From positions 32,001 through 96,000 of the IMG/VR virus record IMGVR_UViG_3300029957_000006: 64,000 bases of DNA; one strand, 5' to 3'. The DNA comes from a virus. Numbering within the stretch: the first letter of the stretch is position 1; every line of letters starts with the position of its first letter. The position numbers and the translations under genes are program-made. This document shows, in pieces, positions 31,934 to 55,913 of the stretch. Below the pieces are notes generated by a model. The model ran no database searches. It was not told the DNA's origin and saw only the letters and a program-made list of their open reading frames with translations.

Positions 31934-32236
31934 ATTTATGCAATTCTAATTAAGTCCAACAATAAAGTGGTTATGTAATTTACAGCTTTTGATGTTCCCA
32001 AGTGATTCAAAACAAGAAATAAGCATTGAATTAAATTCACGTCCTTCAAGTGTCTCTATTCTGAGCATTGTTGGGTCATCAAATGGTTGCCATTCAGGTC
32101 GTTTTTTCTTTTTTATTCGTTTCATTTTTATAATTATCAAAGAATCTAAATTATTTTACCCAAGCTAAGTCTTTTTCACATCTAACAGATATTTATATAC
32201 AAAGAAACTAAATAAATCTGAATAAAACAACTAATA

Positions 32237-51629: not shown

Positions 51630-51754
51630 GAGCTGCTCACAGGATTCGAACCTGTACTACTTCACCTAACGCCAGTTGCAGCTGACTCGGTTCTCTTTCC
51701 GCTGGGATTTGCGGTGTTCTAGCCAATCGCACTAACCAACTGTGCTACCTCCCC
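51630..51754 (-). other. chimeric or degenerate tRNA-like element
   Basis: D-arm GCAC-AGTTGGTTA-GTGC and T-arm ACAGG-TTCGAAT-CCTGT present; acceptor halves do not pair; enlarged middle. Confidence 0.5.
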
Positions 51755-51876
51755 AATTTAGTTGTGAGATTAATCCAGAATCACTGGTCACAACCACCAT
51801 TTCCGCTGTAATGCACCCCAAGGTCTTATTCCAAAGACAAACACAAGTGTTCGGGCCAATACGGTTGAATTTCCAG

Positions 51877-51949
51877 TGGTAACGGCTAGAATCGAACTAG
51901 CGACACATAGATTTTCAGTCTATTGCTCTACCAACTGAGCTACATCACC
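51877..51949 (-). tRNA. tRNA-Phe(GAA)
   Basis: Canonical cloverleaf; ATAGA-CTGAAAA-TCTAT. Confidence 0.95.
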
Positions 51950-51952
51950 ATT

Positions 51953-52870
51953 TGCTGACCATTTACATCAGCCCCAGAAGTCTCTGTTTTTTTAGTTTAT
52001 TGCTACTAATGGGATGGCTACCTCCACCATAAACTATTCCAAGATGTATCTTAGAACGTATCACCGCTGAAACAATACGAGGGCCATGGACAGCCCGAAT
52101 ACACTAGGTTTACTATACTCTCTCATCTTTTTTCTACTCTTGAGAGTTCCATTCCGCTAAGACTGGATTTGTTTCATATCACTCCGTAAAAGCTACGTGA
52201 ATACTACTATTATTATAAACCTTGTTTTTTTTGATTGCAGATGCTCCGAACATCTTTACGTCTCATTGCTGAGTTAACGTTTGTTTTACAATCGTAGTTG
52301 GCTAATCGGTGTATTTCCCCGAAAATTTAAAGAGTGTGAAAACTTACAATCACTCTGCCAATTTTAAAACAGATTCATGGTGGCTTATGAGCAGTCGCAT
52401 TGCTTTTCGTGGAGTATTTGAAGTCTTGCCTCATAACTTTGTTCCACAGTAGTTATACACCATGTCTCCCCTTACGTTATCCTTTCGTGCTATCACGCAC
52501 AGCCAACTTAACGGCAAGTTCCCTTATCAGTTTGTTTTATTTCAGATTCATGTTCATATTGATGTGGACTAAACATCCAAGAACAGATTGTGGCCTCCGT
52601 ACAACGTATTTTTTAGGGCCGAGAGTCTACCTCGTTTGACCAACCCCTTAGCTTCCGCTAATATTTTACGCCACTGGGAACGCATGATATTCGTGCTTAT
52701 TGCTAAGCTTTACCTACCTCAGTACTCAGAATATGAATTAACATATCCCTGTCTGATAATCATGCTGTCGCTATTCGAATTACCGAGAGATCGCTACCTT
52801 AGGACCGTTATAGTTTCTAATTGCAGAAATGAATCTTTATTATTTTTAATTGCTAAAATGTCAATGAACT
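51953..52870 (-). ncRNA. candidate large structured ncRNA (~900 nt) in tRNA array
   Basis: No minus-strand ORF, visibly more GC-rich, many hairpins with GNRA loops, bounded by tRNA-like elements; ends approximate. Confidence 0.7.
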
Positions 52871-52872
52871 AG

Positions 52873-52942
52873 TGGGGGATGATGGGTTCTAACCACCGAC
52901 CTGTATTACTACTGCTCTAACCAAATTCTGAGCTAATCCCCC
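52873..52942 (-). other. tRNA-like element lacking an anticodon
   Basis: Acceptor GGGGGAT/ATCCCCC-A, D-arm GCTC/GAGC, T-arm; anticodon arm reduced to GTA-GTAA-TAC. Confidence 0.7.
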
Positions 52943-52954
52943 ATATTTACTTTG

Positions 52955-52986
52955 CAAAGTTACTAACTAAATTACGCTTTGTCAAG
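52955..52986 (-). promoter_or_regulatory. Bacteroidota-type promoter upstream of tRNA-like/ncRNA unit
   Basis: TTG-N20-TAACTTTG. Confidence 0.7.
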
Positions 52987-53260
52987 TATTATTTTTTAAT
53001 ATTTTTGAGGAACCAAATGCTCCTCTAACAGAGCACAAAGGTACAAAAGATTTTTGAATCTACCAAATTTATTTTTAATCCAAATAGATTTCAAAATAAC
53101 TGATACAAAAATCATTAAACCAAACACCTCTATCGTAATAAAAAGCTAGAAGTTCTGGATCGGTGGCTTCTTCCACTCGTTTCACCATCTTATTGGCGAT
53201 CTTTTGAAGGATTTTCTTTTTCATGAAACAAAGGTACTAAATAATTTTCGAATAAACAAA

Positions 53261-55582
53261 TTAATATCGTATAAGCTTCTTGATCCTATTAACTTGTTCA
53301 AAAAGCTTATGATTGGTAAAATAACTCGGTATATCCTTGATAGGTATATAACCCTCACGTGATTCACCGTGTTGTTTATCTGTGAATTTAATAAAAACCT
53401 TACCATCTAATTGAAATTTCTTTCTATCAATTTCAATTATCGCTATTTCGTTTTCAATTCTACTACTGGTTGGGTCTTGACCCAATCGTTTTAATGTATC
53501 ATTTAATAAAAGAATTATTTGACTCTTTAATTTAACCAACTTAGTTTCTTCTTCTGAATCACCATCATTCGTTTCATCACTTGAATCATCATCTGAAGAT
53601 AATTCTTCGAGTGCATTATCTACCTCTTTTTCAATTGAATTATAAATGGAGTCATTATCGATTTCCATGTTATTATTCCCAGTTTCACTTATTTCTTCCC
53701 ACACACTTTCATAATTTGTTGGAACATCATAACCTTCAAGTATTTCATCTGCTAGTGAAATAAGGTTATCAATAAATAATTGCTTATCAGTACTAAAGAT
53801 ATTTTCTTTAGTTAATGCCATGATAAATGGACCTATTCTTAGATTTAAATCAGTATCATCATTATCCAAATACATGATCGCTTTTATGCTATTACGAATT
53901 TTATCCCAAGCTTTTTCCTCTCCTTCATCTTTAGCTTCAGAATATTTAGAATCTATTTCACCTTTAATTTCATCAACTTTTTTATAACTTTCCAATAAAT
54001 CCTTAAGACTTTCTTTATCCCATCCTAAACCATATGCTTTAAATTGATCCGCAAATTCATTATGATTAGTTATAAATGTTTCAAGATAATATTCATAATC
54101 TTCATCTAATCTATCACTATCACCATCATAATAACTATAATTATATCCATTGCTATTCCAAGTATCATAATCTAATTTTTCCAATAATTCATATACTGAT
54201 GAATCCATATGTTTTTTCAAATAACTACCATAACTTGATGTATCAAAAGTTATATAACCATTATAAAATGTCACATCAACATCTTCTGGTATCATTGATT
54301 TTATTTTCTCATACGCTTCTTCATTACCATTATTAGCTAGTTTCAATAAATTTCCTATTGATTTATGTTCTTCTGTGAATTTATTTGGTAAGTGTTTTTG
54401 CAAAAATTCAAGCTTGTCTTCACCAAAGGTATGAACAAAGGCATTTATTTCTTTTTGATCTAGACTCTCTAAATATGATCTAATATCTTCATCAGATAAA
54501 ATTATCAATTCAGTAAAATTCATCTTAAGTTGTCTTCTCTCTCTACCATCTCTTTTAAGATACTCTTCCAATTTCTTTTTACTGATTTGCGTATAGCGTT
54601 TTAAGATATCTTTTTTAGGTTTAATAAATTCAAATTGTTTATCATCCAATCCAATACCAAAAGAAACATATAAGTTTAATAAATCATCTGGTAAATTAGT
54701 CAATTGACGAAAAGTAATTGGTCTTGCAATTGTAGGATAGATATCTAAGTAGCTTCGTTTATCTTCATAACTAAGCTTCGCAAATTCTTGATCACTAATA
54801 CCATTTTTAAATCTTTCATTCTTTTCTCTTTCTTCTGGTGTAAATGGTTTAGGTACCAACACATCTCTAATAACTTTAAGCTTAGGGTTTATTCCTAGAA
54901 TCTCATTCCAGCTTAATTGCTTATCACCATCATTATTTGCCGATGTAACAAAATATTGTTGTGTTTCTAAATCATCCATCTTTGCATTCTTTGGAACTTG
55001 AATAACGAAAAAGTGATATGGATATTTGAATTGACCTTTAAATACATTCTTAGTCATATTCCAAACACCAAATTCTTTCTCAGCAAGCTTTAAATTCTTG
55101 ACAAAATAAAACGCTGGTTCATATGGCTTGAATCTGTATGTATAAAACATATTGGATGAATCTGATCTAGCTACACACCAAGAATAAGGAAATTTACCCT
55201 TATATTTTATACAAGCTCTTGGTGTATCAGCATAATACACTTCAAAATTTTCATCTTTATAAACTGGCTTGGCATCAATTTCTATTTGTTCATTTCCACT
55301 ACCAAAGGTTGATACACCTTGTCTACGTCCACCAACATAATCAACTAATTGTTCTAGATCATGAAAATCTGTGTAAGAATCGATATTGTTTCTTTTATCT
55401 GGAGCAACAGAAATATCTAAATCTGTATCAAACATTTCTTTGAACTTCTTATCTCTGATATGCTTAAACTTGTCAACGTAATTTTTAACCACTTCTGGAT
55501 CGATACCTTGTTTTATAAACTTGGCACTTTGTGATTTAAAATCCTCATTAAGTATTTCTTGAAATATGTGGCTAATCTTCAT
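53261..55582 (-). CDS. large acidic protein, probably virion-associated
   Basis: Likely start MKISHIFQEILNE after GATATTTATA motif; C-terminal EQVNRIKKLI; function is inference. Confidence 0.65.
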   Translation of the reverse strand: MKISHIFQEILNEDFKSQSAKFIKQGIDPEVVKNYVDKFKHIRDKKFKEMFDTDLDISVAPDKRNNIDSYTDFHDLEQLVDYVGGRRQGVSTFGSGNEQIEIDAKPVYKDENFEVYYADTPRACIKYKGKFPYSWCVARSDSSNMFYTYRFKPYEPAFYFVKNLKLAEKEFGVWNMTKNVFKGQFKYPYHFFVIQVPKNAKMDDLETQQYFVTSANNDGDKQLSWNEILGINPKLKVIRDVLVPKPFTPEEREKNERFKNGISDQEFAKLSYEDKRSYLDIYPTIARPITFRQLTNLPDDLLNLYVSFGIGLDDKQFEFIKPKKDILKRYTQISKKKLEEYLKRDGRERRQLKMNFTELIILSDEDIRSYLESLDQKEINAFVHTFGEDKLEFLQKHLPNKFTEEHKSIGNLLKLANNGNEEAYEKIKSMIPEDVDVTFYNGYITFDTSSYGSYLKKHMDSSVYELLEKLDYDTWNSNGYNYSYYDGDSDRLDEDYEYYLETFITNHNEFADQFKAYGLGWDKESLKDLLESYKKVDEIKGEIDSKYSEAKDEGEEKAWDKIRNSIKAIMYLDNDDTDLNLRIGPFIMALTKENIFSTDKQLFIDNLISLADEILEGYDVPTNYESVWEEISETGNNNMEIDNDSIYNSIEKEVDNALEELSSDDDSSDETNDGDSEEETKLVKLKSQIILLLNDTLKRLGQDPTSSRIENEIAIIEIDRKKFQLDGKVFIKFTDKQHGESREGYIPIKDIPSYFTNHKLFEQVNRIKKLIRY

Positions 55583-55625
55583 TTTAAATGGTATTTCACT
55601 ATAAATATCACTTAAAAGGTTAAAA

Positions 55626-55913
55626 TTACCAAGATTTTGAACCCAATTTCCGATAAATTCTATTATTAAAATCATTTAATAATGATTCTGGTATGATTAT
55701 ACCGTTTTTTGAAAATTCTTCAAGAATTTCTCTTTTACTGAATGAACCTTCAACAATTCCATCACTCCATTCATTTACCCAAAGACCCCAAGATTTTTTA
55801 CCAATTATAACACTTCTAACTATGTTAGGGTGTCTGGTTTTAATAACGATATTGTCTTTGTAATTTCCATTGTCGTATTTTCTGAATACGTTTTTACCTT
55901 CAATTTCATTCAC
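55626..55913 (-). CDS. hypothetical protein
   Basis: ORF on coding strand; start uncertain. Confidence 0.4.
   Translation of the reverse strand: MNEIEGKNVFRKYDNGNYKDNIVIKTRHPNIVRSVIIGKKSWGLWVNEWSDGIVEGSFSKREILEEFSKNGIIIPESLLNDFNNRIYRKLGSKSW

Follow-up and report, generated by a model that had tools for sequence, protein, structure and literature searches.

Bacteriophages carry tRNAs, transfer-messenger RNAs (tmRNAs), ribosomal proteins, and large RNAs without assigned function. Precedents exist for phage RNAs that copy an element of the host, such as the RNA anti-CRISPRs, noncoding RNAs that imitate CRISPR repeats to sequester the partner of a host RNA element, and for stable RNAs whose segment order is rotated with the fold kept, such as two-piece tmRNAs and permuted tRNA genes. 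To our knowledge, no core derived from ribosomal RNA (rRNA) has been described for the ROOL or GOLLD RNAs, and a literature search conducted mainly at the level of abstracts found no phage RNA copying an rRNA domain. Here we describe an RNA encoded on the minus strand of a 64,000-nucleotide stretch of viral DNA (positions 32,001 to 96,000 of IMG/VR record IMGVR_UViG_3300029957_000006, called the window below), which contains a 25-nucleotide (nt) block identical to bacterial 23S rRNA. We lean toward the reading that the core of this RNA is a circularly permuted, 23S-derived replica of helices 68 and 69 (H68 and H69) plus the junction strand of domain IV, and that it acts as a mimic or decoy. 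A preprint describes H67 to H71 of the ribosome as a unit of the 50S interface to which bridges B2a, B2b, and B7a belong (bioRxiv 10.1101/2022.08.30.505801).

The block, AACTATAACGGTCCTAAGGTAGCGA, occupies positions 52815 to 52791 of the window on the minus strand, where it occurs as a single copy with 0 mismatches, just as an earlier note on this DNA had reported. The same note had judged chance implausible for 25 nt, and indeed 0 of 100 dinucleotide shuffles matched the 25-mer within 3 mismatches. The only other IMG/VR contig with the exact 25-mer (L002) holds a genuine 23S gene (Rfam LSU_rRNA_bacteria, 2213 bits), whose sequence of 2486 nt was used as the 23S reference. Four Bacteroidota genomes (L100–L103, representing Chryseobacterium, Flavobacterium, Pedobacter, and Marivirga) have the identical 25-mer in their 23S genes as well, which brings the total to five 23S genes. 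When the RNA region was compared with the reference by BLAST, these 25 nt constituted the only significant match, and its edges were sharp. According to the Rfam consensus structure for large subunit (LSU) rRNA, the block comprises the H69 loop, the H69 3′ strand, the C(UAA)G mini-hairpin, and GUAGCGA, in which GUAGC is single-stranded toward H70/H71; the previous assignment of the segment to the H69 loop and the 3′ strand into H70 agrees with this structure line. We take the block to correspond approximately to Escherichia coli 23S positions 1912 to 1936, and we assume that the bridge B2a residues of the H69 loop lie at about 1912 to 1915. The Rfam LSU model (RF02541) yielded no match in the window at its gathering score and none in positions 51700 to 53300 at E ≤ 10. 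The phage RNA is derived from a 23S fragment and is not an rRNA gene.

The virus fragment in this record, assembled from a metagenome, is 124 kb long and estimated to be 35% complete, and records of this kind invite the explanation that the block is due either to chance or to chimeric assembly with reads from host rRNA. We consider this explanation extremely improbable, given the shuffling result and the representation of the locus in other data. In 19 metagenome runs, at least half of the words of the stretch are present, and the block is spanned in contigs of two other runs, of which one, a diverged variant, comes from another study (spanning was judged from Logan contigs; run X1 covered 3 of 30 bins). 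The contig from run X15 spans positions 52400 to 53100 with 0 differences. That from run X21 (8.7 kb, depth 28.8, from an unrelated 2024 soil run) shows 20 differences over positions 52400 to 52871; the block is kept, with one extra C after AAC. Homologues from other samples likewise keep the block.

The block sits in a conserved core of about 300 nt that belongs to an RNA family without an Rfam match. A search of the window region and four homologous loci with Rfam 15 (4227 models, E ≤ 10) returned only tRNAs and sub-threshold chance matches. The family consists of seven close cores (the window included), the near-identical soil variant, and about eight more distant members, some of them GC-rich. 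One homologue (L004) was reached via a neighboring protein of 804 amino acids (aa), and L010 and L011 in IMG/VR and L012, L014, and L015 in metagenomes were found with a conserved 18-mer of the RNA that lies outside the block. The seven cores align over about 300 nt and are 61 to 84% identical outside the block. Within it, the matches to 23S out of 25 positions number 25 in the window, 22 in L014, 21 in L004, 20 in both L015 and L012, and 18 in both L010 and L011; GGU, CUAA, and GUAG are invariant, and every internal change is a transition. By parsimony, the ancestor of the family would already have carried about 21 contiguous bases identical to rRNA. The earlier note had named homologues without a conserved segment as evidence that would speak against its claim; all seven cores keep the block.

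A scan of IMG/VR with the family consensus of the block, ATAANGGTYCTAARGTAG, gave 68 loci; by chance, we would expect about 23 with the degenerate pattern and about 1.4 with the exact rRNA 18-mer. Many of the 68 loci are plainly AT-rich coding sequence, and the exact rRNA 18-mer occurs in about nine independent groups. Relatives recognized in this way are L116 (= L166; nhmmer 3e-22), which has UGCCCGGUG and ACGGCAGCCGUAA; L124, on a 391-kb contig; L139, L122 (= L138), and the L114 group, which are linked by shared features; and the GC-rich members L164 (on a 512-kb contig), L108, and L159. L147 is a probable member. Common to the distant members are the block, a hairpin after the block, an RRCCRYA partner 100 to 220 nt downstream, and a closing helix with compensatory changes. 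No further homologues were obtained by blastn of a phage GenBank collection or by a pattern search for the 3′ domain, and a degenerate pattern in IMG/VR gave 15 new loci, all scoring as chance. In a collection of prokaryote genomes, a first pattern gave 0 matches and a second gave 68, none fitting the family profile beyond the pattern; the 12 examined lie in unrelated sequence. The family is no curiosity of one genome, since its phages include AT-rich and GC-rich ones and come from several environments.

Evidence that the block is part of a folded RNA comes from a scan for conserved helices that involve it. The GGUC of the block (positions 52803 to 52806, minus strand, as for all features of the RNA) pairs with GGCC about 210 nt downstream (positions 52592 to 52595, within ACGGAGGCC), and this pairing is present in 15 of 15 sequences. 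GGUC/GGCC forms the same four pairs as the lower H69 stem, the U·G pair included. Among the seven cores, both sequences with GGUU carry AGCC as the partner, and in a MAFFT alignment of 15 sequences the four pairs are G-C in 15, G-C in 15, U·G in 14 with U-A in 1, and C-G in 11 with U-A in 4, without a mismatch. The statement in the earlier note that the H69 5′ strand is absent was thus wrong. Its proposal that GCCGTTAAGTT in a hairpin at positions 52505 to 52520 could pair with the block does not hold either: that hairpin is outside the conserved core and is not kept in L012 or L010, and the stretch is missing from L004. A weak, G·U-rich local hairpin drawn by RNAalifold within the block was rejected, and the long-range helix takes its place.

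The fold surrounding this helix was derived from RNAalifold and pair counting, and it includes a closing helix (P1), a hairpin (Ha), a helix around a variable insert (H2), an arm (H3/H4), and another hairpin (H5). In this structure, 94.7% of cells are paired, compared with 35 to 46% when partners are slid, and 13 pairs are changed on both sides, a number reached by 0 of 500 shuffles. P1 joins AGAUUCAU (positions 52829 to 52836) to AUGAAUCU (positions 52544 to 52551), and its compensatory variants include AGGUUCGU/AUGAACUU in L004, AGAUGAAU/AUUCAUCU in L124, AGAUGCU/AGCAUCU in L139, and, in GC-rich members, GACCUCGA/UCGAGGUC (L164) and GGUCCUGA/UCAGGGCC (L108). Hairpin Ha (UCGG-UAAU-UCGA, positions 52775 to 52786) stands directly after the block, in the position that H71 has in 23S, and is kept with changed sequence as AACA-GAAA-UGUU in L015, CGU-GAAA-GCG in L011, and CCC-GUGA-GGG in L164. 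The H2 domain (positions 52682 to 52765), whose helix joins positions 52759 to 52765 with 52682 to 52688 and has both-side changes in five of seven pairs, holds the variable insert and an invariant ACGAA and takes the place of H67 in the 23S four-way junction. Hairpin H5 (positions 52552 to 52587) has stem changes that were read by eye. Its loop (UGUCU in most homologues, UUAGUCC in the window) can pair with AGAC/GACU of GAGGUAGACUC (positions 52623 to 52633); this loop–loop pairing is 89% paired, with weak covariation.

Such covariation bears directly on an explanation at the level of DNA, in which the block is a target or homing site, or the footprint, of a homing endonuclease or mobile intron specific for ribosomal DNA (rDNA), of the I-CeuI type. 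The 26-bp I-CeuI site, as given in PMC2790883, consists of T plus this 25-mer, with a CTAA overhang. The window has A in place of the T at the first position, and the count of 25 of 26 bp made in the earlier note agrees with the published site. Moreover, the conserved stretch is about 20 bp long and centered on CTAA, the same rDNA site has been invaded in several lineages according to PMC2602781, and rRNA-identical blocks of 21 to 23 nt occur without an ornate RNA in small intergenic gaps of other phage contigs. We nevertheless regard a homing site as unlikely. Changes in the block are compensated in an RNA partner 100 to 220 nt away, which a DNA-reading protein would not explain, and the block lies within a closed, covarying RNA fold. 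In addition, the 124-kb fragment, which represents about 35% of the genome, has 0 matches to Intron_gpI and 0 to LAGLIDADG_1 and LAGLIDADG_3, and the keeping of a cleavage site brings the phage no obvious gain. The suggestion in the earlier note of an endonuclease target site is accordingly not favored.

The same helix weighs on another idea, namely that the block pairs with an outside nucleic acid, either as a guide or as a sponge for the complement of 23S 1912 to 1936 (the rDNA template strand, an antisense RNA, or an intron guide). All substitutions within GGUYCUAARGUAGYR are transitions, which would be tolerable to wobble pairing, and the isolated blocks found between hairpins in other phages resemble exposed seeds. 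Against this, four of the block bases are tied up in the internal helix, the block is internal rather than at an RNA end, G-to-A changes would break pairing with the rDNA template strand, and no nuclease or Cas-like gene was recognized beside the block, where the 804-aa neighbor is without a family match. We judge this idea to be very unlikely.

The GGCC strand belongs to a second rRNA-like segment, UUGUACGGAGGCCACAA (positions 52588 to 52604), which corresponds to the H68 3′ end and the H69 5′ strand. For six of the seven homologues, the best ungapped match of this segment in the whole 2486-nt 23S is GUAAACGGCGGCCGUAA, in the register required by the pairing, and the segment is also the top 23S match in all four members tested (L116, L124, L015, and L004); the profile tiles over the segment are collinear with 23S, and L004 continues it as GGCCGUAACU. 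Adjoining the segment is an H68-like arm (H3 plus H4, positions 52596 to 52679), which is identified by covariation, by the Rfam structure line, and by a profile match. The base of H3, UCC[CA]GU-GGCGU / ACGUU[GU]AC-GGA, and the base of H68 in the Rfam 23S structure, GCC[CG]GU-GCCGG / CCGGU[AA]AC-GGC, share a layout of 3 bp, a 2-nt bulge, 2 bp, a 2-nt bulge on the other strand, and 5 bp. They also have a G·U pair in common, and in both the H69 or H69-like helix follows with 0 spacer.

For the profile comparison, a profile of the arm alone (nine sequences, without the block) was searched by nhmmer on both strands of four 23S genes (20.8 kb). A single match was significant (E 0.0078); in it, profile positions 7 to 97 run collinearly with H68 and the H69 5′ strand and stop 3 nt inside the block. 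Further matches at the same place in two Bacteroidota 23S genes are weak and short (E 1.6 and 1.8), and reversed 23S sequences gave 0 matches. A 480-kb background used for this profile is a biased control, because its loci were picked by a 16-mer that belongs to the profile. At 13 of 16 positions, and in a collinear place, the tip hairpin of the window agrees with the H68 tip of Chryseobacterium 23S, and 10 of 54 profile tiles have their top 23S match inside 1820 to 1990, compared with 3.7 expected. Furthermore, junction strand lengths equal those of 23S at three of four connections: 1 to 2 nt lead into the H68-like arm, 0 nt separate it from the H69-like helix, and the CUAAGGUAG strand runs from that helix to the next hairpin. 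The tiles also hinted at a second, degenerate junction copy inside H2 (CUGAGGUAGGUAAA – hairpin – ACGAAU), which was dropped since a profile of the inside of H2 (B2) found no match at the expected place.

Taken together, the block, the second segment, and the H68-like arm amount to a contiguous 23S stretch, about 1832 to 1936, in rearranged order, which bears out, and goes beyond, the suggestion in the earlier note of an rRNA-derived module in a large RNA. Relative to 23S, the order in the core is rotated, with the break in the H69 loop: the core opens with the part that follows from this loop and finishes with H68 and the H69 5′ strand. P1 and H5 hold its two ends at the point where the loop would close, and H2 closes the junction on the other side. 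One could speculate that the permutation arose when a reverse transcriptase switched template across the base of the domain.

We propose that the replica probably serves as a mimic or decoy. The RNA would be made together with the phage tRNAs, would display a free-standing replica of the 50S H68–H69 ridge and of the domain IV junction, and would compete with host 50S subunits for a ligand that recognizes this ridge. Candidate ligands are the platform and h44 side of the 30S subunit (bridges B2b, B7a, and neighbors), a ribosome factor or modifying enzyme, and a defense toxin that targets translation. Conserved in the family are the H69 stem, the 3′ part of its loop, the junction strand, and the bulged base of H68, but not the loop residues at about 1912 to 1915; therefore, a mimic of the ridge and junction is favored over a mimic of the H69 tip. 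The rRNA mimicry put forward in the earlier note fits this anatomy, though the variable loop residues speak against imitation of the B2a tip specifically. A more specific version, to which we would attach rather little probability, is that the RNA docks on the platform and h44 side of the host 30S subunit in place of the 50S subunit, as an RNA-only anti-association factor or subunit decoy that sequesters or reprograms small subunits, or alternatively that it soaks up a defense toxin or factor aimed at the ridge, the module having come from host 23S, for example, via a template switch.

Several observations weigh against the proposal of a permuted replica that acts as a mimic. Within the block, family conservation is lowest at the H69 loop residues that take part in bridge B2a, and the loop residues in contact with the decoding center are not conserved. 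The distant members were found by a pattern derived from the block, and their conservation of the block is thus by construction, which is not so for the partner and other features; moreover, their partner sites were chosen by context and then aligned by MAFFT in one column block. The column that covaries with the block could alternatively pair with U179 in 7 sequences. The significant profile match of the arm has only 8.1 bits and is best against a gammaproteobacterial 23S, marginal in two Bacteroidota 23S genes, and absent in the fourth 23S gene. Global alignments of the arm with H68 are modest (21 tests, p 0.0005 to 0.10, all above the shuffle mean), and when the whole RNA is compared with 23S, the number of 13-of-16 diagonals (8, compared with 6.25 in shuffles) is not above chance. 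For the stretch after the block, a profile (B1) found nothing at the expected place in 23S, and when the 36 nt that follow the block were aligned locally with the 45 nt that follow it in 23S, the score was 17, compared with 13.7 ± 2.9 in shuffles (p 0.16), so that the loose downstream echo of rRNA claimed in the earlier note is not borne out. Profile B2 likewise had no match at its expected 23S place. Counterparts of H70/H71 and H67 are thus not recognizable by sequence, and with neither profile finding anything at these places, Ha is equated with H71 and H2 with H67 by junction position only. Finally, no RNA run was found to contain the locus.

The main rival to mimicry is that an rRNA fragment was captured long ago and exapted as a structural building block of a large ornate RNA, in the manner of ROOL or GOLLD, with a function unrelated to the ribosome and a likeness that is history only. 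The structural evidence is the same for this reading as for a mimic, the RNA has large extra domains without likeness to rRNA, and the H69 loop residues are free to vary. Large phage RNAs beside tRNA genes are also a known class without assigned function, according to bioRxiv 10.1101/2024.12.08.627333. Two features of the family speak for a mimic instead. The rRNA-like junction is the only part common to all subfamilies, from AT-rich to GC-rich, whereas other domains come and go, and the single-stranded CUAAGGUAG is the most invariant stretch, though the building of helices needs no such conservation. We regard a reused building block as possible, at a distinctly lower probability than that of a mimic or decoy.

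Comparison with established RNA classes did not place the RNA in any of them. No match to the ROOL, GOLLD, or HEARO models was found at E ≤ 10. The group I intron model (RF00028) gave 0 matches at E ≤ 10 in the 124-kb record, in which 10 candidates were scored, and inspection by eye of the sequence beyond the block revealed no guide complementary to CUAAGGU. An impression of P4-like and J11/12-like motifs was dropped when the model for type A RNase P RNA (RF00010) gave 0 matches in the record, compared with matches in 11 of 14 control genomes. For an 11-nt tetraloop receptor (CCUAAG/UAUGG) and a group II intron, judged by visual inspection only, no matching halves were seen, and both ideas were dropped.

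Downstream of the core, the long form of the RNA has a 3′ domain (positions 51950 to 52543) that runs up to a tRNA-Phe gene, has no open reading frame (ORF) of at least 40 aa on its strand, and is kept in L012 and partly in L010. The window, L012, and L010 have long invariant stretches of this domain in common, for example around GTGGAACAAAGTTAT and AAATACTCCACGAAA. The domain has no Rfam match and no 23S similarity, and a likeness to the 2058 region of rRNA (14 of 16 positions) was rejected as within chance expectation.

The block lies in an 890-nt stretch without a minus-strand ORF of at least 40 aa, flanked by a tRNA-like element and the tRNA-Phe gene (positions 51876 to 51949). ARAGORN identified 19 tRNA genes within 16 kb around this stretch, all on the same strand, and 2 to 29 tRNA genes lie on the strand of the RNA in 11 of 13 loci scanned. 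The tRNA-like element (positions 52873 to 52942, minus strand), upstream of the RNA, is without an anticodon, is found in no homologue, and is not part of the family; the X21 soil contig skips exactly positions 52872 to 52947 and has a single A instead. A tRNA whose anticodon, UUA, would decode UAA stop codons is present in related phages (L004 9894–9985, L006 11592–11669, and L015 2952–3023), and stop-codon suppression or recoding may occur in this phage group.

The gene for the 804-aa protein (positions 53261 to 55675, minus strand) is directly upstream of the RNA in four of six informative loci. In four other relatives, the protein is present with no detectable RNA beside it. The protein has no Pfam or PHROG family, and the Atlas yielded nothing usable (best feature score 0.86; own-model predicted local distance difference test score 0.53). 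PseudoU_synth_2, Ribosomal_S21, and S30AE/HPF had 0 matches in the 124-kb record, which carries little weight because the record holds about 35% of the genome. The leader AAGATTCATTWCWGCAA, which occurs once in the 124-kb record, or a close variant of it also heads other small noncoding units of unrelated appearance, one in L010 about 3.6 kb downstream of its RNA and one in record 11 of run X17, which matches window positions 52809 to 52847. Stable-RNA genes of these phages may use this leader in common as a signal for the start or for processing.

Sequences resembling the block also occur elsewhere in phage contigs. At L134 1609–1626 (also L161 and L137) and L129 2276–2293 (also L130, L149, and L156), 21 to 23 nt identical to the same 23S stretch lie in small intergenic gaps with no ornate RNA. 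In L134, the stop codon of a 180-aa ORF marks the start of the block, with a hairpin and a convergent gene beyond it; in L129, the block lies between two opposite-strand genes. The bare block may have a role at the level of DNA or in a small RNA. In another group (L162 12700–12760, L128, L133, and L140), GGTCCTAAGGTAGTGTGTTCT is present with its AATAAC part paired in a local hairpin, GUUAUUGC-AA-GCAAUAAC, which is H69-like in ordinary, nonpermuted order. L146 (8973–9015) has a block-like sequence twice in tandem, with TAGTTTATAATGGTTCTAAGGTA repeated.

If a mimic of the H68–H69 ridge is correct, there would be a concrete hypothesis for one family of large phage RNAs, namely, that it binds whatever binds H68–H69. 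An rRNA domain could then fold and persist outside the ribosome in permuted form, mimicry of host RNA at the level of the ribosome would join the phage–host repertoire, and the stable-RNA operons of large phages would be tied to the control of translation beyond codon supply.

Among known systems, ROOL and GOLLD resemble this RNA in being large, structured, noncoding, and phage-borne, in lying among tRNA genes, and in having no assigned function. With the RNA anti-CRISPR decoys it shares the principle of a phage noncoding RNA that copies a host RNA element; here, the copied element is an rRNA domain and the partner is putative. In permuted tmRNAs and tRNAs it is the functional gene itself that is permuted, whereas here an rRNA fragment has apparently been permuted into a new RNA. 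The mRNA leaders that bind ribosomal proteins by mimicking rRNA are alike in that an RNA outside the ribosome reproduces local rRNA structure to bind the binder of the rRNA (PMC3616713). Those leaders are short, cis-regulatory elements in host mRNAs that usually resemble rRNA in shape rather than sequence, whereas the phage RNA stands alone, has 21 to 25 nt of identity and a probable descent from rRNA, and has no ribosomal protein gene downstream. The closest counterpart remains 23S H68–H69 itself. Compared with the 2.9-kb rRNA, the phage RNA core is free-standing and about 300 nt long, has a permuted order in which the H69 3′ half comes first and the 5′ half about 210 nt later, opens the H69 loop into a three-way junction with P1 and H5, and has the middle of H68 shortened or replaced. 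Shared by the two are the block (25 of 25), the segment of the H68 3′ end and H69 5′ strand (11 to 13 of 17), UGCCCGGUG in L116, the H69 stem pairs with their G·U, the bulge layout at the base of H68, the absence of a spacer between H68 and H69, and the hairpin after the junction strand.

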